From an uncultured virus (IMG/VR IMGVR_UViG_3300028805_000115) (lineage: Duplodnaviria; Heunggongvirae; Uroviricota; Caudoviricetes), in the IMG/VR virus record IMGVR_UViG_3300028805_000115: a stretch of DNA of 64,000 bases; one strand, 5' to 3'. Position numbers and translations under genes: made by a program. The notes beneath the pieces are model-generated. The model searched no databases, had not been told where the DNA came from, and was given only the letters and a program-made list of their open reading frames with translations. Positions 18,847 through 55,032 of the stretch are shown here, piece after piece; position 1 is the stretch's first letter, and each line of letters opens with the position of its first letter.

Positions 18847-19443
18847 CTATTTTCTCCTGTCCATCTCTGTCTGACTGCCTTTTCGTAACCAATTGTAATA
18901 ATACATCAAAGCATCAAAGTCCACTACTCTCAATCGCTTTGAAAACATTTGCCTATGAAATTGCACATCACTCTTGGAATGAATGTTTCCAAATCTTGAA
19001 TCGCCAATGCTCGTGCGTTTCCAAGCTTTGTTCCATGTCGCTATCCAATATTCGCCATCGGGTCTTTTAGGTCTTGCATATAACCAATTCTTAAATATAA
19101 AACTGAAGCATAAAATATCGGGTTCGTTTTCTTCTCTTAACTTTCGGTCAAGCTCTGTCAATACATATTCGTGAAGCCACCAGTCATCATCATCCATAAA
19201 AAGTATATAATCGCCTTTAGCTTCTTCAATACCTCTATTTCTCGTTGGTCCATCACAGTGATTTTCAACTGTAAATACTTTGTCTGTGTATTCTCTGGCT
19301 ATGCTTTCAGTGTTGTCCGTACAGCTGTCACATACGATTATCAACTCGAAATCACGAAAAACCTGCATTTTTATGCTTTCCAACGCTTTTCGGATATGGT
19401 TTTCAGAGTTGAACGCTGGAATTATGATGCTAAATCTCATCAA
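18847..19443 (-). CDS. Glycosyltransferase family 2
   Basis: SIIIPAFN, ELIIVCD, RNRGI, FMDDDD, WNK motifs. Confidence 0.9.
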   Translation of the reverse strand: MMRFSIIIPAFNSENHIRKALESIKMQVFRDFELIIVCDSCTDNTESIAREYTDKVFTVENHCDGPTRNRGIEEAKGDYILFMDDDDWWLHEYVLTELDRKLREENEPDILCFSFIFKNWLYARPKRPDGEYWIATWNKAWKRTSIGDSRFGNIHSKSDVQFHRQMFSKRLRVVDFDALMYYYNWLRKGSQTEMDRRK

Positions 19444-20807: not shown

Positions 20808-21968
20808 TTAGATGTTATACTGTTTTTTAAGTTTTAAAACGTCCTGCATATAATCATCAATCTGCTTTTCATTAAGTGTGAACTCGCCAGATGACTCGCT
20901 GAAGCGTTTCCATGATGCTTGGTCTTTTACGCTTAGACCTTTTCCCGCTTTGCTCTCCGCTGTAAGTCTCAGATTCCTGCCAGCATTGTCATATACTTTA
21001 AGTGAATCAACAACACCAGACAGCTTTTGTACCGCATCATATGCTTTTCTATGTGCGGCTGTCAGCTGATGCAATGGAACAAGTCTTTTCTGCTTCACGA
21101 ATCTGTCCAAGCTGTTCTGTCTTACCGTTTTGAAATCACTGTAAACAAACGACATCTCGGTCTTGTAACCAGCTTTCTTTGCGGCATCTAAAAGCTTATA
21201 CACGCCACCACCTGTAGCTGTGCCGTCATACAATGTCGGATAATTGTTCTGTAAAGCTGTTCCATATATCTGCTTTGCAAGTGCTGAAGATTCCTCATGA
21301 TAGTATGCTGTAAGTCTTTCGTCCATCTCTTTTCCATCAGCTTTAGCAAGTGCCTTTTTGATATCGTCAGGGTCAATCACCATCGGGCTTTTGTTCTGTG
21401 AGTAGAAATCTCCAATATTCTTACTGAATACACCCTTGCCAGATGCGGCACCACCACCCGTAAACATCGCAACTTTTTCCTCGCCCGGCGCATACGGCTT
21501 ATGCTCTTTGAAGTAATCTTCCATAATCTGTCTGTGTACTTCAGCACGTTCTGGAGACAGATTGCCGTTTTTATCAAGATGGTCAGCAAATGACTGTTCG
21601 CCAGCCTGTCCTGCTTCTGATGTGTCTATCTTATCAACTTCCTTGCCTTTAAACATCATCTTACCATTGCTTATAGTGACTTTATCGCCCTTAGACAATT
21701 CGTCTCTGTATTTAGACTCATTATTTAGCTTTTCCGCGTCTGTTTTGTTCTTAGCTATATCATTCTCTTTCTTCTGCGCGTCAAGCGTGTTTCCTGTCAT
21801 TTTAGAGCTATTGGAAGCTGTATTTGATTTGTTGCTCTGCGTAGACTTTTTTCCTGTTGCTTCTGCTACTCTGTTTTTGATGTCTGCGTCAGTATCACCA
21901 GCATATATCGGAATATGTTTTCCGCCCTTTAGTGTTATCCATCTTTCGGGTTCGCGTTCTTTTGCCAT
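20808..21968 (-). CDS. Zeta-toxin-like P-loop kinase with WIT leader
   Basis: GGGAASGKG P-loop, IDPDDIK, HEES, DGT, R...R.VP, YDN motifs of the zeta/PezT family. Confidence 0.8.
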   Translation of the reverse strand: MAKEREPERWITLKGGKHIPIYAGDTDADIKNRVAEATGKKSTQSNKSNTASNSSKMTGNTLDAQKKENDIAKNKTDAEKLNNESKYRDELSKGDKVTISNGKMMFKGKEVDKIDTSEAGQAGEQSFADHLDKNGNLSPERAEVHRQIMEDYFKEHKPYAPGEEKVAMFTGGGAASGKGVFSKNIGDFYSQNKSPMVIDPDDIKKALAKADGKEMDERLTAYYHEESSALAKQIYGTALQNNYPTLYDGTATGGGVYKLLDAAKKAGYKTEMSFVYSDFKTVRQNSLDRFVKQKRLVPLHQLTAAHRKAYDAVQKLSGVVDSLKVYDNAGRNLRLTAESKAGKGLSVKDQASWKRFSESSGEFTLNEKQIDDYMQDVLKLKKQYNI

Positions 21969-21982
21969 GATGCTGTCTCCTC

Positions 21983-22237
21983 TCACATTAATCCGTATTG
22001 TATCGCTGAAGCTGTTTCATATAATGCCAGATTGTAATATTTGAACTCTGCATCATTCTTGAACGCTGACCGTTCACGCGCCTGCTTCTTTGATGTGGCA
22101 TCACTATTGGCCATATTGCTTATCTGTGTCAATCTGTCATCGTCTACCTGCTTTGCGTCTGCATCAGTAAACTCTGCACCTTTGGCTTTACTCTTGTAAT
22201 ATGCCAGCTCTTTCTCATTCAGTTTCAGTTTTGCCAT
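21983..22237 (-). CDS. Small protein, candidate antitoxin of the zeta-like kinase
   Basis: 84 aa with GGAGG RBS directly upstream of the zeta gene; role inferred from position. Confidence 0.45.
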   Translation of the reverse strand: MAKLKLNEKELAYYKSKAKGAEFTDADAKQVDDDRLTQISNMANSDATSKKQARERSAFKNDAEFKYYNLALYETASAIQYGLM

Positions 22238-29500: not shown

Positions 29501-30666
29501 TAAGCATTCTGTCTGTATTACCTGGCCAATCATGCATATCAATTACATCCTGTTTAAGTCTTTCAGCAAATTCCTTGATTGCATCTGACTTGCCGTCATT
29601 ATAACCTCCTGACTTGCCATCATTATAACCTTTTATATAAATCTCCTGTGTCGTCTGTCCACAAGCCCTATTTGATGTCCTTAAGTGATACTCATGTACT
29701 TTTGTTTCCGTGTTCATCGTTATCCTCCATCATTCCCATAAGCTTCTGCATAAACTCTGAAAAACTCATAGGTTCATCCTTTGTGAAATCTGCCGACTTG
29801 ATATCCTGTTTATCATGCTCCTCATTAAGTTCTCTGTCAGCGTCAGCAAGTGCAAAGCTCAACAGCTTAATAAGTCTATCCTTTATAGTCACCTGTAATA
29901 CTGGTAAAGATACAAATGGTATTGATACTTCAGCATTCTTGATTGACTGCTTATAAACACCAGCCACTGCTGTTGCTATTGCTTCAAACATCTCCTTGGT
30001 TGTTCCCTCTCCTTCAATCATTACTCCATCTTTCTCTGCTTTAATGTTTAACATGTTAAATTAACCTCCTCTTGTGTAAATGCATATTTTGCGTTTTAAG
30101 CGTCTTTTGTGTCTCAGTAGTATATTTTATCGTCTGATGTGTTAAATCGTCATTTCTAAGCGTTCTGATGCGTTCTATGATATCTTCCTCAAGATTTATC
30201 CCGCTGTTTTCAAAATCATAGCTGAATTTGACTTTGTTTTGCATCAGAAAGTTATACAGTCTGGTAGGCATCACCAGACTGTTACCTCTCTTTTCAAGCT
30301 CATATATCATGACTGCATTCTCCACAGCTGAAATACTTCAAGCCCATCATACATAAAATACATACGGCCTTTATCCTCGCTCCATGTAGGGTCATATGTT
30401 ACTGTCTGTCCCAGATAGAACGCTACAGTTTCAAGACCAGCGAACATATGAACCGCACCATACTCACCACAAAGCTCTGCACCAAAATCATTATACTCGG
30501 GCTTGCCAAGCTGAATCAGTGCTATCTTGCTCTTAACTACTCTGTCAAGCCAATTCTTGACTGCTTTCTTTTTACTCTCAAATTCTGCACTCATAACAAC
30601 TCCTGTTTTCTCCATCATACCTCTTCCTCCTTTGTAATCGCTGACTTTATTATCCAACCTTCCCAC
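26497..30666 (-). other. Array of ~13 short, overlapping hypothetical ORFs (accessory region)
   Basis: Minus-strand ORFs 26497-26778, 26791-26991, 26991-~27188, 27178-27387, 27384-27683, 27668-28132, 28298-28783, 28780-29118, 29120-29467, 29457-29717, 29692-30054, 30056-30325, 30307-30666; several Cys-rich; two share an EQxPCxDxISR motif. Confidence 0.65.
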
Positions 30667-31181
30667 TTTACATCAACAAGCTTTTCGCTGATGCCATCAA
30701 CATCATTTATATCAAGATTAATTCCTATCTTGCTAAGACAAATAGGACCGATGCCGTACTTTCTTGATACCGGATTAGTAAGCTCTTTGCCACAACAGCA
30801 ACAGGTGATTGTAGGCTTAGCTAATCCATGAAGCTTCATGTAAACCATACCTCGCGTCTCTTTCTCTTTTGTACCTGTCATTATACGCATGGGCATGGGA
30901 TTGTTGTTATTCCACTTTGCCATGAAATCGAAAAGCGGTGTTGCGGGCTCTGTCATGTACTTTTTAACAGTTATCTGAATCTCTCCAAGCTTTGGACTGA
31001 TGCTCTGTATGCTCTGTGACGCATCAGAATCAATTTTAAGCACTGTTTCCTTCTTCGGTGATAACTTTATATGTATCGGGCCATTAAACGTCTTAAAAGC
31101 TGAAATTGCGCTTTGTATGCTGTCATAGCTTTCTCCGTTGACTGCTACTGACCCTTTCCAGTTCTTTAATGCTGTTATCAT
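30615..31181 (-). CDS. DUF6011-like Zn-finger protein
   Basis: CCCCGKELTNPVSRKYGIGPIC. Confidence 0.65.
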   Translation of the reverse strand: MITALKNWKGSVAVNGESYDSIQSAISAFKTFNGPIHIKLSPKKETVLKIDSDASQSIQSISPKLGEIQITVKKYMTEPATPLFDFMAKWNNNNPMPMRIMTGTKEKETRGMVYMKLHGLAKPTITCCCCGKELTNPVSRKYGIGPICLSKIGINLDINDVDGISEKLVDVKWEGWIIKSAITKEEEV

Positions 31182-39774: not shown

Positions 39775-40383
39775 TCATCTCCAAATCAACCATGAAAGTA
39801 TGTTATTCTCAAGCACATATCCAAGATTGTACTCAAGGGAACAAGCATATTTCTTATCGCCAGTTCTGAACTCTTTACACTGATTCTTTATACACTCAAG
39901 CGACTTCTTAACCGAACTGATAAGCTCATCATAAATCTCTTTGCTCTTTTCAATCTGCGCCTCAAGTAACTTTATCAGCTCATCAAGCTCAATAATACGC
40001 TTCTTTATTTGCTCGAAAAGCTCATCAGGTGTGTACAAATACGTGGGAATCGTACAGCTGTAATAAGGCTTATCTGCTTTCTCTCTGCGCGGGTCATCTT
40101 TCGGTAAATCATTGACATTGATGTAAGCCCAGATATTGTAGCTACGACTTACGCCACGCTTATTTCTACCAACAACACTAAGTATCGGATGATGGTCATC
40201 TGAATACCTCTCGTACCCGTAATCTGCATTCTTGAAACTCTTTGCTCTTGAAGCAAAATCTGAACCATCTTTCTTCTTCAGAATCTCGACTTTTGACCAA
40301 AGCTCTTTCTCAAGCTTTGCATCCTCGATACTATTAAGAAGTGCACGCCTTACATCTTCAAAATCTCTAACCTCTTCGCTCAT
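39775..40383 (-). CDS. Hypothetical early protein
   Basis: AAAGGAGG RBS behind promoter copy 3. Confidence 0.65.
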   Translation of the reverse strand: MSEEVRDFEDVRRALLNSIEDAKLEKELWSKVEILKKKDGSDFASRAKSFKNADYGYERYSDDHHPILSVVGRNKRGVSRSYNIWAYINVNDLPKDDPRREKADKPYYSCTIPTYLYTPDELFEQIKKRIIELDELIKLLEAQIEKSKEIYDELISSVKKSLECIKNQCKEFRTGDKKYACSLEYNLGYVLENNILSWLIWR

Positions 40384-40407
40384 AAGCTCTACCTCCTTTC
40401 GACTCTT

Positions 40408-40475
40408 TCAAGTGTCATCTCATCTGACAAGAACATTATACAACACGTTTTTATGTTTGTCAACACTTTTTTGAA
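40408..40475 (-). promoter_or_regulatory. Repeated early promoter element, copy 3
   Basis: TTGACA (40463-40458)-N17-TATAAT (40440-40435). Confidence 0.85.
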
Positions 40476-40483
40476 AAAAAAAT

Positions 40484-40937
40484 TTATTTTTTATTTTTCT
40501 CGATGTAAAACTGCTGTTCTAAGCTATCTTCCCACAGATTCTCATCTACTTTCTTGAATCCTGCTGATGCAAGCGTTATCTCTGCTTCTTTCTTTGTCTT
40601 GAAACCCGGATGTGCGATTCTTGACTTACCATTTACTGTCGCCATAACTAACCATTTTCCAAAAGCTCTCATATCGTCTCTCCTTTCAGCAATAACAGCT
40701 GTCCTCGATTTCTTCAATCTCTGCACCAGTAAGTCCACACTCTTTCTGAAGTGCCTGCTCTTTAGCAGTGATAGATGCTGAAATAAATATCTTTTCCTCT
40801 GCGGTGTATCGTGTACTCAGAAACATCTTCATAAGCTTCTTAATACCTGTTATCAGCTCATTCTTGATATACTCATCAATATCTTTCTTGCTATTGAAAA
40901 CAACGTGGTCAATGTAGTAGCCTCTGTATTTTGTCAT
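40484..40937 (-). other. Two small hypothetical ORFs (40484-~40672 and 40686-40937)
   Basis: ORF track; both have RBSs. Confidence 0.55.
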
Positions 40938-40944
40938 ATCTCGT

Positions 40945-41030
40945 ACCTCACTTTTCTGTCACTGTCTCTCTCAATCACAAGAACATTATATAACATGTTT
41001 ATTCATTTGTCAAGCACTTTTTTAAATTTT
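40945..41030 (-). promoter_or_regulatory. Repeated early promoter element, copy 4
   Basis: TTGACA (41013-41008)-N17-TATAAT (40990-40985). Confidence 0.85.
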
Positions 41031-41438
41031 TTAAATGTACTGTGAATAACCCATGATACTTGCTAAAAAGCTTCTTTTTGCGTTTACATACTCTGCAAAA
41101 GTCAGATTCTTGTATTCTTTCGTCTGCTTATCTATCTCGAAAGATTCTGACAGCATCTCTTTAATATCGCAAACACCATCTCTACCACCGAACATTTTAA
41201 CTATCTGATAAAGATTTATTGTCATTCCCCTGTTTGTCATATCTCGTCCTCCTCACACAATCTTAACAATTTTGCCATACTCACCGTTGGAATAAATTCT
41301 GCAATATCTGATTTCTTTAAAATCTTTTCTTGCTATCATCTGTTTGATGTTTGCATCTCTTTCTTTTGCTGTCTCACAATTAAATGTATCTTGAAATCCA
41401 TCATTCCATGTAAAATACACAGCGTATTTATCTTTCAT
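41031..41438 (-). other. Two small hypothetical ORFs (41031-41240 and 41253-41438)
   Basis: ORF track; RBSs; bracketed by promoter copies 4 and 5. Confidence 0.55.
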
Positions 41439-41444
41439 ATCTCA

Positions 41445-41530
41445 TACCTCACTTTTCTGTCGCTGTCTCTCTCAATCACAAGAACATTATATAACACGTT
41501 TATTCATTTGTCAACACTTTTTTAAATTTT
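41445..41530 (-). promoter_or_regulatory. Repeated early promoter element, copy 5
   Basis: TTGACA (41514-41509)-N17-TATAAT (41491-41486); near-identical to copy 4 over ~90 bp. Confidence 0.85.
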
Positions 41531-41536
41531 TTTTCC

Positions 41537-41572
41537 AAAAAAAATAAGAGACCCTCTCGGACCTCTTATTTT
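41537..41572 (-). terminator. Intrinsic terminator after the sliding clamp gene
   Basis: AATAAGAG...CTCTTATT stem with U-tract. Confidence 0.7.
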
Positions 41573-41580
41573 ATCAAGCC

Positions 41581-42726
41581 TTAAGCTTCTGCATTATCTT
41601 CCTCAAACAAGCTCAAAATCTGCACGATATCGCCATCAATCAGCTTGATTGCTGAATCATCGCCAAACTGAATCTCGACTGTATCTGTGGACTGCGCTTT
41701 TACATGCTTTGTAAATGCTACAGAATCAACAGTGCATTCAAATTTATCCTTGCTTCCTGACAGATATGTTATATCTTCCACGCCTGTGCTTGCAAGTGAT
41801 GATATTTTGACAGCTTTGCCATCAAATGTCAGCTTGATTGCATTGTCATCATATGCACCTATAAACAACGATATTCTATCAAGCGCCTGCATCAATGCAT
41901 TCTTTGACAGCTTACAGCTGTAAGGCATATTTGCGTCTTTAAACTGCTTCAGTGCTTCTACAGGATAATCATCAATACCTTCCATCGCATGTGTGTAAAT
42001 CTGAATATCTGAAGCATAGAACAAAAGCACTCCCTCATCGTATCTCTCGACTGAAAACTTATCATCAGCTGACAATGCTAACAGCTCTATAACAGTCGGA
42101 GACAGTATTACAGGCTCTTCCATAAGCTCTGTGCTGTATATGCTCATCTCATCTCCGTTTGTCGCGGCAATGATGTCTCCTGCATAATAGCCTGTAAGAT
42201 ACGGCGCATCCATCGAAACAGCAAGCGCGGGCTTTACAGAATTAAGCATCTTTGATACCACTGAAAGTTTGATATTACCTGTTCCTGCTTCAGGCATCAC
42301 TAAGTCACTAATCGGGTCAGGATACTGTATGGAATTGCCCATTTCGTCATACTGTAAAGCTATAGTGTACTTTCCATTACCTGTAACATTAAGCTTATCA
42401 GCATCAGCTTCCATCGTGATTTTCTCACATGTCTGCTTTTCTATCAGCTTTGCGAACTGGTCAGCAAGCACTGTGGCATAGAACTCCCCCTCAATGTTCT
42501 TCTGTCTCACATACAGATAATTAGTTCCTGTCTCATCTGACACAATCAGCGTAAGCTCTCCATCTTTTACTCTGATGCACATCAACTGTGTAAGCGGTAA
42601 AAGCTTGTTATTACCTACTCCCTTGTAAGCTTTGCTTACCAATGTCTTGAATGTCTCCGCTGAAATCGTCAGCGCATTTGCTTTTACTGCTTCTGTCTTT
42701 GTCTCTGTCTTTTTCTTTCCTGCCAT
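41581..42726 (-). CDS. DNA sliding clamp (beta / DnaN-like)
   Basis: 381 aa; P.LTG...ATNG, YP, L.QALDRISL patterns; clamp loader genes nearby. Confidence 0.75.
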   Translation of the reverse strand: MAGKKKTETKTEAVKANALTISAETFKTLVSKAYKGVGNNKLLPLTQLMCIRVKDGELTLIVSDETGTNYLYVRQKNIEGEFYATVLADQFAKLIEKQTCEKITMEADADKLNVTGNGKYTIALQYDEMGNSIQYPDPISDLVMPEAGTGNIKLSVVSKMLNSVKPALAVSMDAPYLTGYYAGDIIAATNGDEMSIYSTELMEEPVILSPTVIELLALSADDKFSVERYDEGVLLFYASDIQIYTHAMEGIDDYPVEALKQFKDANMPYSCKLSKNALMQALDRISLFIGAYDDNAIKLTFDGKAVKISSLASTGVEDITYLSGSKDKFECTVDSVAFTKHVKAQSTDTVEIQFGDDSAIKLIDGDIVQILSLFEEDNAEA

Positions 42727-42738
42727 GATGTCTCTCCT

Positions 42739-42897
42739 TTATGCTTTAACTTCTTTTGAATACTCTTTCCATACATCAGAAAATCTTCCATGTTTGATGC
42801 AATCATGCACTGAAATACCTAAAATGTGCATATTGTTTTTTGCAACCATTCTGTCAATCTTTCTTGTGTGAACTCTACGAAATTTCTGTCTTGCCAT
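42739..42897 (-). CDS. Small basic hypothetical protein (52 aa)
   Basis: Not in track; MARQKFRRVHTRKIDR..., AAGGAG RBS. Confidence 0.5.
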   Translation of the reverse strand: MARQKFRRVHTRKIDRMVAKNNMHILGISVHDCIKHGRFSDVWKEYSKEVKA

Positions 42898-42911
42898 AAC
42901 GTCTTATCTCC

Positions 42912-43961
42912 TTAAAATAATGATTTTCTTTTGATTGTATTAACTCTCTTTGCTGTCTTACCGTGTAAGCATTCAGCAATAGCAATACCATACTTATATG
43001 CTACAAGACTTGGAACTCCTGAGCATCTGTTATACTGCTCCTTTAATTCGATTTCATCCGGAAAATAGAAATCATCTCCAACTGTCTGTAGTCTTAAATG
43101 CTCTCGTACCGATAAACGTCTTGGAAAATCTGCATTACCTCTTTTAGCATGTGCCTTTGAGTAATCATCAATATTCAGATATGGTTCGGGATATAACAAA
43201 GCTGATTGAATCGATGATAACACAGTTTTAGCTGGTTCATCCCAGTTACTCTGTCTAAAATTTGCACTGAATTTTGAAAACAGATTCTCCTTCATTTTCT
43301 CAGTATTATGATTTTTGACATCTTTGATTGTCTTATCTCTCAAATCATAAAAGGCATCTCTCTGTGTAGTTCTTCCAAAAAGCATCTCTTTAGGAATTTC
43401 AAACTCATACGGAATATCGTCTCTGATTGCAACCATATATACGCGCTCACGCTCTTGAGGAACGCCAAGATGCCATGAATTTACAATCTTCCAATACGTA
43501 TGATATCCAAAGCTTTCAATCTGCTTTAAGAACTCTTTGAAAACTGTTAAGCTGTCACCCATTGCAATGCCTGCCACGTTTTCAAAAAACAAAGCCTTTG
43601 GCTTACACCCAGAAAACAATCTAATTGTCTCAGCTAACAAATCTCCGTATTTTTCATCGTTTGTAAGTCGCCTCGCACCACACACTGAAAATGGCTTACA
43701 AACAGGCGTAGCTATCATCAAATCATGCTTTGGAATATCTTCAATCTTAATCTTTCGTATATCTTCACACACTGCATGATTACCGATATTAAGATTATAC
43801 GTCTTTACAGCGTCAGTGTCATTATCAACACCCCAAAGCATGTTATATCCTGCGTGTTTGAATCCATAAGCTCCTATGCCTGCACCACAGAATAAGTCAC
43901 AAGCTGTTAAACCATTTAAGTCAAGCTGTATCAGCTTATTTGATTGCAATGTATCCGACAA
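42912..43961 (-). CDS. C5-cytosine DNA methyltransferase homolog, candidate DNA carboxymethyltransferase
   Basis: Motif I DLFCGAG, IV TPVCKPFS, VI ENV, VIII QERER, IX RRLSVREHLRLQ; atypical motif X QYNRCSGVP. Confidence 0.85.
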   Translation of the reverse strand: MSDTLQSNKLIQLDLNGLTACDLFCGAGIGAYGFKHAGYNMLWGVDNDTDAVKTYNLNIGNHAVCEDIRKIKIEDIPKHDLMIATPVCKPFSVCGARRLTNDEKYGDLLAETIRLFSGCKPKALFFENVAGIAMGDSLTVFKEFLKQIESFGYHTYWKIVNSWHLGVPQERERVYMVAIRDDIPYEFEIPKEMLFGRTTQRDAFYDLRDKTIKDVKNHNTEKMKENLFSKFSANFRQSNWDEPAKTVLSSIQSALLYPEPYLNIDDYSKAHAKRGNADFPRRLSVREHLRLQTVGDDFYFPDEIELKEQYNRCSGVPSLVAYKYGIAIAECLHGKTAKRVNTIKRKSLF

Positions 43962-44664
43962 AGTTCATCCACCTCCAAAATACATCAATCTGTCTAAAAC
44001 CTGCCTGCTTCATCAAATCGATGTTCCAATCATTTGTCACAGGAACAAGCACGCCTTCAAGCGATAATCGCTTACGTTCTATATCATCTTTGCTGTAGCC
44101 GTTAGATTCTTTGTATGCATGATAATTCTTGATAAAAAGATTGTCAAGATATGCTGAACTTCCAAGCACTTTCTCAACGAATATAAAACAGCCATGACAT
44201 GGTGAAAGATTGTTATAAATGCTTTGTATAATCTGCTGTCGATAATTTATTGGTATAAACTGAAGTGTTAAAACGCTTGTAATAACATCATAGTGTCCTG
44301 ACGGAACTCCCTTTGTCATATCATGATTTAGTATAGTTACGCGTGAATCGTCTTTAAATCGCTCTTTTGCCTTCTCAAGCATCGGCTCTGATACATCCAC
44401 TCCTACAAAGTATCCTCTGTCGCGCTCAAATTTGCCCGTTAAGGCCGCCAACATCAATCCGTCAGAACATCCTATGTCTAAAACATGAAAAGACTGTTTT
44501 ACCGGATTGTCGTTAATCACAGAGGCAACTAAATCCGTTACGCTCTTTCTCATAACATCATACTGCGGAATTGACCTACTTAGCATATTCTCGAAACAGT
44601 CAGCAACACTCTGGTCAAATTCCCAATTAGCTTTTGGAACAACTTTATCTATCTCGTTTTTCAT
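43936..44664 (-). CDS. cmoA: Carboxy-S-adenosylmethionine synthase (CmoA family)
   Basis: WEFD..VA..F..M..RSIPQY, LDIGCS.G, LTLQF, EK, K..NGYS...I..KR..LE.V, GF......W.NF; collinear with E. coli CmoA as I recall it. Confidence 0.85.
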   Translation of the reverse strand: MKNEIDKVVPKANWEFDQSVADCFENMLSRSIPQYDVMRKSVTDLVASVINDNPVKQSFHVLDIGCSDGLMLAALTGKFERDRGYFVGVDVSEPMLEKAKERFKDDSRVTILNHDMTKGVPSGHYDVITSVLTLQFIPINYRQQIIQSIYNNLSPCHGCFIFVEKVLGSSAYLDNLFIKNYHAYKESNGYSKDDIERKRLSLEGVLVPVTNDWNIDLMKQAGFRQIDVFWRWMNFVGYIAIK

Positions 44665-46976
44665 ATCTCAATCGCCTTTCCGTACCACTCTTTTGTTATC
44701 TCGACATCACACTTGATTGGCATCTTTAAGATTTCCTCAGCGGCCTCTGACATCGTTTTTGCCAACAGCTCGGAACATTCTTTGATGTTTTCCTCAGGAC
44801 ACTCTGCTATGACCTCATCATGCACGGGTATAAGCAATCTGAATCCAAGCTCTTTCAGTCTCTCGCTTTTACTCAGCTTTATCATTGCCAGCTTTGTCAA
44901 ATCTGCGGCACTGCCTTGTATTCTCGAATTTACGACCTGTCGTGTAGCATCAGCAATCTTACCACCGTTGTCGATTATCAGAATCCCCTTTTCTTGCGCT
45001 TCTTTTTTGATTTTAAGCTTATCCTTAAACCATGCTCGTTTAAGGCGCTTTCTGAGCGAATCTTGCACTTTAGCGGGCACTTCCTGAGTTATCTGAACCG
45101 GCTTTCCGTTCTCATCAAACGGTAAATCGCTGTTGAAGTCTAAAACGTCATCATCCACAGGAACACCATTGATATATTTAAACTCATATTCCTCAAGCTG
45201 AAGCTCTGGCAATCTGCGCTTTCTTCCACAAACTGTTGTGACATAACCTAAATCATATGCCATATCAAGTGAATCTTGCTCGAACTTCTCGATTGCGGGA
45301 AATCCTCTGAATACGCTTTCTTTTATTGCTTTTGCTTTTGCTTCAGTACATCCTAATTGCTCCGCTATACTTGCTTCACCTCTACCGTACAAAACTCCCA
45401 ACAGAATGCTCTTTGCCTGCGTTCTACGCTCCTTGCCTTCTTTGTTTTTGCTCCCGTCTGCATTAAACTCTCTGCACTCATCATAAGGCTTGTTAAAAGC
45501 TTTGGAAGCAATCTCAGAATACAAATCCTTACCCGCCATGAATGTGTTATACATCTGTGGGTCTCCTGCTTCTTTACAAAGTGCGGCAAGACATTTGGGT
45601 TCCTGCTGTGAGAAGTCACTACTCATCAGCAAGTATCCGGGTGATGCTGTAAACATCTTTCTGATGTCTTTATTATGACTCGGTATGTTCTGAAGATTTG
45701 GCTCACTGCTTGACATTCGTCCCGTCTTTGCCCCGTATTGATTAAACTTGCAATGTATCTTCCCATCATCGGGATTGACACACTCAGGAAGCTTATCTAT
45801 GAACGTGGAAACAAGTGTTGCCAAGCTTCTATGCTCTAATACTGCTTTTGATACATCGTTATTTATCTTTGTAAGCGTCTCCTCATCTGTACTTCTCGGA
45901 GACTTCTTGTTTACAGGCTCTATGCCCATTATATCGTAAAATAATATCGCAAGCTGTGTGGAACTGCCTATATTGATTGGATTGTCAAGCTTTGCTCCGT
46001 TCTTTCGTGCTTTGTCTATCTCAGCTTTATATGGCTTCAAAGTCTCGTAAAAAGCTTGCACCTTTTCGTCAAGAAGTGCATTATACTTTTCCGACAAACT
46101 CTTGCTATACTCAGTATCAATCAAAACACCAGTATCTTCCATATCTGCTACAACAGGAACACAAGCCATCTCAATATTCTTGAACACCCAATAAAGCTGT
46201 CGCATATCTTCACGCTCATGGTCAGGTCTCAAATACTGTCTCTGATAATCACAATACTCTGTTGTTATTATCGGGTCGTGTGCGGCATACAGATATCCAA
46301 CATTGTATGGTATCAATGTAAACGGTATGCCTTTAAACAGCTCATCAAATGTGAAGGCATCGCCCTGTCCATTCATTACGTACTTTTGATGCAATGGCTT
46401 CAGCTTGTTTGTAGGCTCGTTTTCGTTAAGAATACGCGCTCCTAAATAAGCATCCCATGTACAGTAGATATCTAGAACACCAAAGTGTCGCATGACTCTG
46501 ATATCAAAGTCGGCATTGAACATATCAATATCTGGCTTTTTCTTCAGTAATCGCTTGAACTCCTCACGCACAAAATCAGCATCAAGCTGTCCAACAGCTT
46601 TCTGTTGCGTGATATAGCTGATATGATTGATTGGAATGTATGCACTCTTTTGACCATATGTGTAAATACATGGTCCTGCAATCTTATTACGCATCGGGTC
46701 AAGACCATCAGTCTCAGTATCAAGCGAAAAGTATCCATTGCCTATACATTCTGTGATGTAATCATGAAGCACTTCCTTATCTGTGATACATAAATACTCA
46801 TCACGATACTTTCCAAGATTCTTTTCGACCATCTGCTTAATCTGTTCAATTCTACCGATTAAACTGGTCCCGCCCTTTAATGACGGGACCACTTGTTTTG
46901 CTGTAGCTGTCTTGCCTGCGATTGACTTATCTAAAGCTCTGTTTGTCTTTGTCTTAGGCAACGTAAACAACGGCAT
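44661..46976 (-). CDS. polA: DNA polymerase, family A
   Basis: 3'-5' exo DTETDG, FNADFD; TGRMSS..PNLQNIP, DFSQQE, motif B RTQAKSILLGVLYG, IQGSAAD, VHDE. Confidence 0.95.
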   Translation of the reverse strand: MPLFTLPKTKTNRALDKSIAGKTATAKQVVPSLKGGTSLIGRIEQIKQMVEKNLGKYRDEYLCITDKEVLHDYITECIGNGYFSLDTETDGLDPMRNKIAGPCIYTYGQKSAYIPINHISYITQQKAVGQLDADFVREEFKRLLKKKPDIDMFNADFDIRVMRHFGVLDIYCTWDAYLGARILNENEPTNKLKPLHQKYVMNGQGDAFTFDELFKGIPFTLIPYNVGYLYAAHDPIITTEYCDYQRQYLRPDHEREDMRQLYWVFKNIEMACVPVVADMEDTGVLIDTEYSKSLSEKYNALLDEKVQAFYETLKPYKAEIDKARKNGAKLDNPINIGSSTQLAILFYDIMGIEPVNKKSPRSTDEETLTKINNDVSKAVLEHRSLATLVSTFIDKLPECVNPDDGKIHCKFNQYGAKTGRMSSSEPNLQNIPSHNKDIRKMFTASPGYLLMSSDFSQQEPKCLAALCKEAGDPQMYNTFMAGKDLYSEIASKAFNKPYDECREFNADGSKNKEGKERRTQAKSILLGVLYGRGEASIAEQLGCTEAKAKAIKESVFRGFPAIEKFEQDSLDMAYDLGYVTTVCGRKRRLPELQLEEYEFKYINGVPVDDDVLDFNSDLPFDENGKPVQITQEVPAKVQDSLRKRLKRAWFKDKLKIKKEAQEKGILIIDNGGKIADATRQVVNSRIQGSAADLTKLAMIKLSKSERLKELGFRLLIPVHDEVIAECPEENIKECSELLAKTMSEAAEEILKMPIKCDVEITKEWYGKAIEI

Positions 46977-47740
46977 TATTTATCTCCTCTTCTCTGCGGT
47001 GTACGTCTCTCAGAACGTGCGGAACTACGTCTTGCGGGCTTCTCATCTTCTTCCTCATCGTCTGCATCATCTTCCGCATCTTCTTCCTCATCGCGTCTGC
47101 TTGAACGTCTGCGCGTTGTTGCTTCTTCTCTGCTTGAACGTCTGCGCGGTCTTTCTTCTTCCCCATCATCTTCAGGCGGGAACTCTTTTTCCTCAAGATA
47201 ATACTCCATGTCATCAGCTGACTTCTCAAGAACAAGACCACCAAGAAGCTTCGGCATATCGTCCTCAAAATCTTCAAGCTGTGTATCATCTTTCTCGACC
47301 TCATAAATCTCATAGGTCGTGTTTGTGTCTTTGGGCTTTCCGTTTCTCTCGACTTCAAAAATGTGCTGTACAAGATTATCCTTGTTTGCGTATCTGCTAC
47401 ACAAACTGGACATCTTCTCGAACATCTTCTTACCTCTGTCCCACACCTGTACTTGGTCCTCATCTACATTGTAGACAGGAATTAAAAGCTTGACCTGTGT
47501 TTTTATCTTTTCACGACAGAACGGACACATATCAACAGGGTCTCTGTAAGTACGTAAACAGTTTACGTATCTCTTCTTATCGTCAATATCTACCTCATGA
47601 ACGCTGAAGCCCTCAATGTCGTTCTCGTTGTTGTAAAGAAATCTGACTCGCTTTACTCCCTTGTTTTCTGAAATACTGAAGAAGCCCCCGCCTCCCTGTC
47701 CGCCATAATTGGCGGACTCACTCGCATTAAATCGTGCCAT
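46976..47740 (-). CDS. Single-stranded DNA-binding protein (gp32-like)
   Basis: VRFL, H...C...CPFC Zn site, acidic/Arg-rich tail; upstream of polA. Confidence 0.65.
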   Translation of the reverse strand: MARFNASESANYGGQGGGGFFSISENKGVKRVRFLYNNENDIEGFSVHEVDIDDKKRYVNCLRTYRDPVDMCPFCREKIKTQVKLLIPVYNVDEDQVQVWDRGKKMFEKMSSLCSRYANKDNLVQHIFEVERNGKPKDTNTTYEIYEVEKDDTQLEDFEDDMPKLLGGLVLEKSADDMEYYLEEKEFPPEDDGEEERPRRRSSREEATTRRRSSRRDEEEDAEDDADDEEEDEKPARRSSARSERRTPQRRGDK

Positions 47741-47755
47741 AAGTTTTTCCTCCTT

Positions 47756-48403
47756 TTAGTTTTTTGCAAGATTTACGACTGCTTTAACATTGCTATACTC
47801 AATAGTAGCTGTCTTGTTGTACTTTGACTTTGAATACTTATTATCAACAGCTACATCAGCAATCTGTGAATAACTCGCGCTACTCTCGCGAATGTAAACT
47901 CTGATATTCGACTTGTTTGTTAAGATGTAAGCGAAACACTTGTTGTCCTTATCTATAAGTCGAATACGCTTTCCAACTATCTTGTACTTAGCTTTTGCTT
48001 TATCAAGCTCATCAGACACAAAACCCTGACCAAGCTCACGACTTGCAACTGCGCTGATTTTCTTCTGCTTCTTCTCTTTGACAATCTCAACCTTATCAGC
48101 ATCAACTAACGAACACTCAGTTTCAGACTCTTTCTTTGCTTTCTGCTTCTTCTCAGCTTTTCTCTTATCCTGAATCTTCTTGACTTCCTTATCAACATCT
48201 GCAAGCTTCTCAGCTCCGGGCATAGGAACAAGCTTTGACTCATCAACCTTAATCTCATCTGCCTGCTTCTTCTCAGCTTCAAGAATCTTTGCTACTGCTT
48301 TTGCCTTTGCGCCTTTCTTATCAATCTTGATACCAAGCTTATTAGCAACCTCAACTAAGCAACCCATTGTCATCGAATAAAGCTTTTCTTCACGTGTCAT
48401 CAT
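47756..48403 (-). CDS. Lys-rich hypothetical early protein
   Basis: AAGGAGG RBS behind promoter copy 6. Confidence 0.6.
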   Translation of the reverse strand: MMTREEKLYSMTMGCLVEVANKLGIKIDKKGAKAKAVAKILEAEKKQADEIKVDESKLVPMPGAEKLADVDKEVKKIQDKRKAEKKQKAKKESETECSLVDADKVEIVKEKKQKKISAVASRELGQGFVSDELDKAKAKYKIVGKRIRLIDKDNKCFAYILTNKSNIRVYIRESSASYSQIADVAVDNKYSKSKYNKTATIEYSNVKAVVNLAKN

Positions 48404-48449: not shown

Positions 48450-48515
48450 CGCATCTCTCTCACTGACAAGAACATTATACTACACGTTTTTCTATCTGTC
48501 AAGCACTTTTTTGAA
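48450..48515 (-). promoter_or_regulatory. Repeated early promoter element, copy 6
   Basis: TTGACA (48502-48497)-N17-TATAAT (48479-48474). Confidence 0.85.
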
Positions 48516-54774: not shown

Positions 54775-55032
54775 TTATAATGGTAAAGTTAAATCGATGT
54801 TCTCAATCTCAGCACGAACTTCCAGTATGTGCAAATATTTACCCATAGCTCTTGCTTGCTTCTGTAACAGCTCAAGACTGCATACAGGCTCGAATCCAAG
54901 TGTCCCTGCTTCCATCTTTATGATGGTCGAATGTAATTTGTTATACCTGATTTTTGTCTGATGATATTCTGCACGAAATCTTTCTTTGTAGTTGTCGGAT
55001 GTCATCGCATCCACTGTGTTTGCTAATTCCAT
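54775..55032 (-). CDS. Conserved phage hypothetical protein
   Basis: YKERFRAEY.Q.KIR...LL..Q..AM..YL.ILE.RA. Confidence 0.65.
   Translation of the reverse strand: MELANTVDAMTSDNYKERFRAEYHQTKIRYNKLHSTIIKMEAGTLGFEPVCSLELLQKQARAMGKYLHILEVRAEIENIDLTLPL

Follow-up and report, generated by a model that had tools for sequence, protein, structure and literature searches.

What does a phage make with a CmoA-like gene that overlaps a gene for a C5-cytosine methyltransferase homologue? The question is raised by a stretch of DNA of 64,000 nucleotides from an uncultured virus (IMG/VR IMGVR_UViG_3300028805_000115), which was analysed whole and is referred to here as the window. On its minus strand, the listing of open reading frames (ORFs) places polA, a CmoA-like gene (43936..44664, 242 aa) and the gene of a C5-cytosine methyltransferase (C5-MTase) homologue (42912..43961, 349 aa with a TTG start; MT below) in overlapping order. 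At 44661-44664, one ATGA contains both the stop codon of polA and the start codon of cmoA, and cmoA and the MT gene overlap by 26 nt (43936-43961), provided that the TTG at 43961 is the MT start. A Shine-Dalgarno-like GGAGG can be read within the end of cmoA (43972..43976, minus strand), 10 nt 5' of this TTG. A first-pass annotation, made from the sequence of the locus, had described this overlapping operon, which is borne out here (the second overlap with the TTG start), and had proposed that the phage makes its own carboxy-S-adenosylmethionine (Cx-SAM) and writes 5-carboxymethylcytosine (5cxmC) with it. That proposal emerges as the best-supported reading, given the linkage of the MT clade to cmoA, the presence of CmoY in relatives and a published precedent. 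We consider it probable that the phage makes Cx-SAM and that MT, which belongs to a clade named here RCSG after its motif X and is a predicted C5-carboxymethyltransferase, uses another motif-X solution to write 5cxmC that is left unamidated.

The precedent, and the cyanophage pairing that the first-pass annotation had mentioned, is the one natural CmoA-CmoX-type system that full-text searches returned, that of Synechococcus phage S-B43 (Yang et al., Nat Commun 2025, PMC12783734). As described there, S-B43 CmoA makes Cx-SAM, and CmoA together with CmoX, with or without CmoY, yields 5cxmC. CmoX (SpCmoX below), a C5-MTase homologue adjoining S-B43 cmoA, writes 5cxmC at GC sites, and its R350, at the position of HhaI N304, contacts the carboxymethyl group in PDB 8YF3. 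CmoY ligates glycine onto 5cxmC; for virion DNA of S-B43 the same source reports the glycine amide only, free 5cxmC not having been found. Its survey picked 5,615 candidate CmoX proteins by the motif SPPC and R350, on whose contigs 4,257 CmoA and 2,251 ligases were found as well, figures by which cassettes lacking a ligase are already implied.

The identity of the first enzyme is supported along its whole length. Searches with profile hidden Markov models (HMMs), which the first-pass annotation had proposed for both proteins, gave the CmoA-like protein a full-length match of 145.4 bits to the TIGR00740 CmoA model (E 2e-42; runner-up family 42 bits) and one of 226 bits to phrog_4752, and its closest solved relatives are the CmoA/YecO structures 1im8 and 4gek (E 1e-25 to 1e-24). 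The motifs NGYS (residues 188-191) and IERKR (residues 195-199) are both present, and R199 of the latter (codon 44068..44070, minus strand) aligns with R199 of E. coli CmoA in the HMMER alignment to 4gek (chain numbering minus 14), a residue salt-bridged to the Cx-SAM carboxylate (Byrne et al. 2013, PMC3663124). The cofactor contacts given in that source are Y39, D62, G64, S66, A70, D89, N90, D117, I118, N132, F137 and R199, those of A70 and I118 being main-chain or water-mediated; the source adds Glu164, near the substrate, not as a contact of the cofactor but as a candidate general base. By hand mapping from the HMMER alignment, 9 of these 13 residues (the 12 contacts plus Glu164) are identical in the window protein (Y35, D63, G65, S67, D90, D115, F136, E164 and R199), and the equivalents of A70, N90, I118 and N132 differ. 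We thus predict the activity of a CmoA-type carboxy-SAM synthase.

MT scores 196.5 bits against PF00145 (cut-off 22) and 168.2 against TIGR00675 (cut-off 100.65). Its AlphaFold2 (AF2) model (pLDDT 83.2, pTM 0.87) is a complete C5-MTase fold, as far as a model can tell: the top Foldseek match is M.HaeIII (TMq 0.76, TMt 0.82), and M.HhaI and 8YF3 (13th, TMq 0.64) are among the other matches. By sequence, residues 21-326 align with M.HaeIII at E 9e-31, and the match to 8YF3 has E 5.5e-16. All motifs quoted for the two proteins by the first-pass annotation were found in their places. In MT these are DLFCGAGIG (22-30), motif IV T85-P86-V87-C88 with Val, not Pro, ahead of the catalytic Cys (43698..43709), motif VI ENV (127-129; 43575..43583), motif VIII Q169-E-R171-E-R173 (43443..43457) and a motif X variant that lacks the Asn, Y310-N-R312-C-S314-G-V-P317 (43011..43034), all on the minus strand. 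The catalytic Cys (C88), the Glu of ENV (E127) and the motif VIII arginines (R171/R173) are thus in place in a C5-MTase fold, and where canonical enzymes have Pro-Cys in motif IV and Gly-Asn in motif X, MT has Val-Cys and R-C-S-G without Asn. We examined conservation in two alignments, one of 38 homologues at 62-85% identity and one of 15 sequences at 36-63%. ENV, Q169, R171 and R173 are invariant in both, as are R312, C313, S314, G315 and P317; Cys88 and motifs I and IX are likewise invariant in homologues down to 36% identity. TPVCKPF is found in 121/121 aligned family members, and this count, together with the invariance of R312, C313, S314 and G315 in the 38 homologues, argues that the motif features are not due to chance.

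The register of motif X decides what R312 can be compared with. The first-pass annotation had implicitly aligned the Gln of MT with the canonical Gln, a placement that proved off register: Y310-N311-R312 falls on canonical Y-[KR]-Q in a HMMER alignment with M.HaeIII, in a MAFFT alignment with 12 CmoA-linked MTs and in a profile-profile alignment of 15 RCSG-type against 7 GR-type enzymes. The same canonical residues correspond to T345-E346-R347 in SpCmoX, so that R312 of MT stands opposite SpCmoX R347. The motif X loop of MT is shorter by one residue, and at the canonical Asn position (SpCmoX R350, HhaI N304) it has Ser314 by the profile-profile alignment and a gap by MAFFT. R312 as the equivalent of M.MpeI N374K or SpCmoX R350, the substitution that the first-pass annotation had envisaged, is ruled out by the three alignments, which place it three residues upstream of N374/N304/R350. 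The change can be followed in a pair of siblings, P0127, which reads KQYEIVGNGIPSL, and P0123, which reads KQYERCSGIPSL: relative to the former, the latter has R for I at position -3 and has lost one of the two G-N residues. The position of R347 is occupied by Arg in 7/7 GR-type CmoA-linked MTs, among which E346, R347, G349 and R350 are invariant, and in 1/249 unique GN-type MTs collected; R347 is not mentioned in the main text of Yang et al. (PMC12783734).

TPVC, which the first-pass annotation had regarded as a change in the cofactor pocket, was rejected as a determinant of that pocket. The cmoA-linked RCSG-type loci L028 and L111-L117 keep FPC, and P0127 combines PVC with canonical GN, contradicting TPVC as a cofactor signature. 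Since most RCSG representatives keep FPC and TPVC is confined to one sub-branch (P0123 has TPTC), TPVC is, judged from these alignments, a lineage trait and not a cofactor signature.

The link of the clade to cmoA is seen in gene neighbourhoods, a survey of which the first-pass annotation had also recommended: cmoA accompanies 16/17 RCSG-type enzymes in a set of 26 further IMG/VR loci, and 0/147 canonical or other C5-MTase loci from the same scans. The latter are made up of 74 loci from a pattern search, 9 from the set of 26, 60 from genomes, and L217, L224, L227 and L231. All 13 IMG/VR loci fetched with the window CmoA have a C5-MTase homologue beside cmoA, 12 of them within the locus itself; the thirteenth, L020, ends past a CmoY, and the MT start is visible in L025/L110. 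Among the 82 loci fetched by MT patterns, 7/7 TPVC loci have cmoA, L028, whose MT combines FPC with RCSG and is fused to a ParB-like domain, contains a divergent cmoA together with cmoY, and the other 74, all canonical GN, have neither cmoA nor cmoY. The genome loci gave cmoA in 1/1 RCSG versus 0/60 others, and the 15 metagenome loci of the TPVC clade gave it in 12/12 of those that reach far enough upstream. More distant metagenome RCSG loci have cmoA in 10/16; two fragments, L229 and L230, have cmoA and an unreadable MT motif and were excluded from the counts. A close relative (L018/L104/L201) has an intact MT but a broken cmoA frame, in two ORFs of 144.7 and 127.4 bits, which is either a frameshift or an assembly error.

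Directly 5' of MT in the 15 TPVC-clade loci stands a CmoY homologue in seven and cmoA in seven, the remaining locus being cut; hence 7 of the 14 close relatives with a visible upstream gene have an Asn-synthase-like CmoY homologue between cmoA and MT. The order in the distant RCSG member L028/L111 is cmoY-cmoA-MT-ParB. The window thus shares with CmoX systems the association with phage cmoA, here by overlap, and its clade the frequent presence of an AMP-forming ligase. A CmoY-type ligase needs a carboxyl group on DNA, so its position between cmoA and an RCSG-type MT supports the reading in terms of 5cxmC.

How does this clade relate to other C5-MTases? A word-indexed search with MT returned 201 proteins at E <= 1e-20, of which the best 120 are 60-96% identical and all metagenomic. 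A regular-expression count over the 150 nearest 50%-identity cluster representatives gave 113 GN, 9 RCSG and 28 unclassed, and no GR-type CmoX, seven pattern matches counted within the 28 being false positives of the expression. No member of the TPVC sub-clade was found among one genome for each of 185,579 species, where the best match (44% identity) was an RCSG enzyme encoded beside a cmoA on a plasmid of Aneurinibacillus, and none in the cultured-phage collection, where the best matches were 31-33% identical and include Bacillus phage phi3T-type methylases. In a quick tree of 52 sequences with a midpoint root, supported by the SH-like approximate likelihood-ratio test (SH-aLRT) only, RCSG sequences (Y-x-R-C-S-G-[VI]-P) form one clade (98%), sister to a YRIVGNGV group and separate from the SpCmoX/PaBG clade (99%). 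FPC...ERAGR enzymes and Staphylococcus-phage enzymes form a third clade, apart from RCSG. Two RCSG-type representatives, P0131 and P0141, have an insertion of ~330 residues exactly at the motif IV catalytic Cys (GGFPC...HNC), which in sequence looks like an intein or homing-endonuclease insertion.

From these results we infer the following course. The CmoA-type synthase (43936-44664) would convert SAM and prephenate to carboxy-SAM. MT (42912-43961), with the Cys88, ENV and RxR chemistry kept and a motif-X pocket that lacks Asn and carries Arg312, would accept Cx-SAM and carboxymethylate cytosines of the phage DNA at C5, which would yield 5cxmC. As a CmoY-type amide ligase is absent from the window, the carboxymethyl group is predicted to stay unamidated, and the likely role of 5cxmC would be protection against host restriction.

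Several observations weigh against this reading. MT has neither of the two features by which CmoX was recognized, motif IV being T85-P86-V87-C88 instead of SPPC (S95-P96-P97-C98 in SpCmoX) and the R350 position having no Arg, and Yang et al. (PMC12783734) report that SpCmoX lost its activity when R350 was changed to Asn. In MT, Val takes the place of a near-universal Pro ahead of the catalytic Cys, and the catalytic loop 89-101 is modelled at pLDDT <50. The CmoA-like protein misses the TIGR00740 equivalog cut-off (193.3 bits), a shortfall that says little given that validated SpCmoA scores just 115.6 bits; a PaBG homologue (130.5) and a Staphylococcus phage homologue (166.3) are below the cut-off as well. 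The GN-type P0127, whose genomic context was not found in viral or metagenome contigs, and the GN-type L224 nest within the RCSG clade. Five RCSG loci (L216, L223, L225, L226 and L228) lack cmoA within 5 kb on either side; L222 lacks it with an upstream flank of just 259 nt; and L119 lacks it within 6 kb on either side and anywhere in its 281-kb contig, rated 67% complete. We conjecture, by analogy with SpCmoX, which can do so in E. coli, that RCSG phages without cmoA rely on host CmoA. The related loci are not independent, some sharing contigs and some of the metagenome loci probably duplicating IMG/VR contigs; the activity of every RCSG-clade MT is a prediction; and the window may not be a whole genome, so that a ligase could lie outside it.

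This last point bears on an alternative that we regard as unlikely, namely that 5cxmC is merely an intermediate that an enzyme unrelated to CmoY, encoded in the window, outside it or by the host, hypermodifies further. S-B43 virions held the glycine amide and no free 5cxmC, as reported in PMC12783734, half of the close relatives of the window cassette have CmoY, and many window ORFs are without a family assignment. Against this, five CmoY queries and a small HMM had no match at E <= 10 in all window ORFs of at least 40 aa, in agreement with the remark of the first-pass annotation that no downstream modifying enzyme was obvious; no PF00733, ATP-grasp or other ligase-type Pfam was found in the 95 window ORFs scanned; and the slot that CmoY takes in syntenic relatives is closed, because cmoA and MT overlap by those 26 nt. 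CmoY was also found nowhere in two relatives rated 100% complete by CheckV (G003 and G004), in a search that detected the known CmoY of a positive control (G007).

A different objection is that MT could be an ordinary SAM-dependent 5mC methyltransferase, with CmoA either depleting SAM against host defences, a possibility raised for CmoA in the Discussion of Yang et al. (PMC12783734), or feeding RNA modification. Its nearest relatives by sequence are indeed ordinary methylases (M.HaeIII and the phi3T-type enzymes), SPPC and R350 are missing, and some distant RCSG loci have no cmoA nearby. We nevertheless think this quite improbable: motif X has lost its canonical Asn, an Arg that is rare elsewhere is fixed clade-wide, cmoA co-occurs with this clade and with none of the ordinary MT loci, and relatives have the homologue of a carboxyl-dependent ligase between the two genes. 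As the first-pass annotation had noted, neither cmoB nor a tRNA gene is visible in the window: tRNA genes are absent from the whole 64 kb, and CmoB-type, Asn-synthase and ParB Pfam families from the 95 ORFs scanned. That the MT homologue is catalytically dead or no DNA transferase at all, for example a DNA-binding regulator, seems to us very improbable. The missing Pro, near-universal in the C5-MTases seen, and the low-confidence catalytic loop would fit such a protein, but the invariance of Cys88, ENV, QxRxR and motifs I and IX down to 36% identity is the pattern expected of purifying selection on catalysis, relatives with the same motif X keep FPC, and the intein-like insertion of two family members sits exactly at the catalytic Cys.

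The large terminase is closest to that of Blautia phage Montmirail (46.5%), followed by Clostridium perfringens phages (~44%), which makes a host among the Clostridia (Bacillota) plausible. The Firmicutes phage of the first-pass annotation is in keeping with this, as an inferred host. Among genomes sampled from the class to which a Lachnospiraceae genome belongs, none of the 120 that were scored gave a CmoA match at E <= 1e-20 (one more went unscored), whereas the E. coli control was positive; should the guessed host be correct, a phage that has to supply its own synthase would be consistent with this.

The cassette as such is not new, since a phage CmoA that feeds a C5-MTase homologue for 5cxmC has been published (PMC12783734). 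The novelty that the first-pass annotation had wished to see checked therefore does not extend to the kind of system or to ligase-less cassettes, both in print, and lies in an MT clade outside the SPPC and R350 signatures, a C5-MTase lineage apparently separate from that of CmoX and with its own version of motif X. A recognition rule built on SPPC and R350 misses the whole RCSG clade, which leaves surveys of natural 5cxmC incomplete. We tentatively go further, to a proposal that we hold possible but short of probable: that the RCSG clade is a second, independently recruited natural family of C5-carboxymethyltransferases in which the Asn position was emptied and the upstream Arg holds the carboxylate, that the R347-equivalent is a determinant shared by the Arg-bearing CmoX types, that free 5cxmC is the final virion mark, and that the SPPC and R350 census undercounts such enzymes. 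The clade would then be a natural experiment on retuning a methyltransferase pocket for Cx-SAM, with the R347-equivalent Arg as the candidate shared determinant. The complete CmoY-less genomes predict phages with a free carboxylate as the final mark, a form not seen in S-B43 virions as described (PMC12783734). Under the proposal above, RCSG-clade enzymes would probably also have a target sequence different from the GC sites of SpCmoX, and an M.HaeIII-like lineage may offer carboxymethylation at new targets, of use for sequencing or labelling based on 5cxmC.

The cassette is embedded in a replication operon. Upstream, polA (44661..46976, minus strand) encodes a 771-aa family A DNA polymerase with a 3'-5' exonuclease domain (PF00476 306 bits, PF01612 36 bits). 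Downstream, the conserved neighbour is a sliding-clamp (DnaN-like) gene (41581..42726, minus strand; PF00712 24.2 bits, slightly below the cut-off of 24.4), and the order polA-cmoA-[cmoY]-MT-clamp was found again in relatives L008-L012 and L018. Between MT and the clamp gene lies an ORF of 52 aa (42739..42897, minus strand), which is probably outside the modification system, as it has no Pfam or PHROG match and is missing in L010, where MT ends 11 nt before the clamp gene. A perfect (12/12) sigma-70 consensus promoter-like site at 48474..48502 (minus strand) and the next such site downstream, at 41486-41514 directly past the clamp gene, both recognized by consensus match only, bracket the genes orf215-SSB-polA-cmoA-MT-clamp, and the former is likely the start of this transcription unit. 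Two intergenic stretches (41435-41549 and 40380-40503), one of which overlaps the site at 41486-41514, have copies 82-85% identical elsewhere in the related record G001 and may be repeated promoter cassettes. G001 (28.9 kb), the nearest record, is identical to the window across 40000-48000; the phage collection held no near-identical DNA to the 5.5-kb region.

The window is most of the genome of an uncultured siphovirus-type phage that has a replisome of its own as well as genes for terminase, portal, major head, tail and endolysin. Its palindromes are strongly depleted: by a maximal-order Markov model, GATC occurs once in 64 kb against ~297 expected and CTAG 4 times against 74, and GAATTC, AGTACT, CCATGG, GCATGC and GTTAAC, each expected 8-13 times, are absent. 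AGCT, CGCG, TCGA and GCGC are not depleted (observed/expected ratios of 1.03 for AGCT and 0.86 for GCGC, with 0.49 for GGCC), and several GC-containing 6-mers are depleted as well. The loss suggests heavy avoidance of restriction sites alongside the modification cassette. Elsewhere in the window, a family-2 glycosyltransferase gene (18847-19443, minus strand; PF00535 87 bits, weak GtrB-like PHROG matches) sits in the packaging/head module between the large terminase and portal genes, and between the small and large terminase genes lies the gene of a 392-aa protein whose residues 158-338 match a Zeta-toxin-type kinase domain (20808-21986, minus strand; PF06414 81.6 bits). The minus strand also has genes for a small protein related to crAss001_48 (54775-55032; PF21825, 64 bits) and for a DUF6011 protein (30615-31181).

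Among known systems, E. coli CmoA (4gek) and H. influenzae YecO (1im8) resemble the window synthase in their CmoA fold and in the carboxylate contact by Arg199, and they align with it over the full length. The window departs from the bacterial CmoA/CmoB pathway of tRNA cmo5U in having neither CmoB nor a tRNA gene, the partner of its synthase being a homologue of DNA C5-MTases. M.HaeIII (GGCC; PDB 1dct, 3ubt) is the closest solved structure to MT by sequence and by fold, small domain included, but has canonical PPC and GN, uses SAM and is just 28% identical, so that its specificity cannot be transferred to MT. M.MpeI N374K, an engineered Cx-SAM-using CpG methyltransferase (as cited in the Discussion of PMC12783734), resembles the natural MT in that motif X of a C5-MTase was retuned by loss of the Asn and gain of a basic residue; in M.MpeI that residue replaces the Asn itself, whereas MT has Ser or a deletion at that position and its Arg three residues further upstream.

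Among Bacillota phages, by annotation only, Staphylococcus phages vB-SscS-F1 (L130) and SPbeta-like (L131) also have cmoA beside a C5-MTase homologue without the motif-X Asn, one of the two with and the other without a CmoY homologue. In motif X these enzymes have Y-D-V-V-G-G-V-I, where Gly stands in place of the Asn and Arg is missing; motif IV is GSPC, and the enzymes belong to the third clade. The two phages could serve as culturable test systems. Erwinia phage Yoloswag (L134) and Alcaligenes phage Afa-NA1 (L132) have a CmoA homologue with no C5-MTase within 5 kb on either side; in Yoloswag a CmoY-like gene adjoins CmoA, and in both the sole annotated methylases near cmoA are adenine methylases.

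The closest comparison remains S-B43, from which the window cassette differs in several respects. In the N-terminal 300 residues, MT and SpCmoX share just 26% identity, and the two fall into separate, well-supported clades; TPVC stands against SPPC, Ser or a gap against R350, and the window is without CmoY. Its cmoA-MT pair lies inside a polA...clamp operon of a siphovirus-type phage with a probable Bacillota host, whereas S-B43, a T4-like cyanophage, has the order cmoA-cmoY-cmoX, and the window CmoA keeps the E. coli-type Arg199 where SpCmoA has Glu in a pairwise alignment. The two nevertheless share a phage cmoA translationally coupled to a C5-MTase homologue without the motif-X Asn, the absence of cmoB, a CmoY homologue (in the relatives of the window cassette) and an Arg that precedes the canonical Asn position by three residues, R347 in SpCmoX and R312 in the window.

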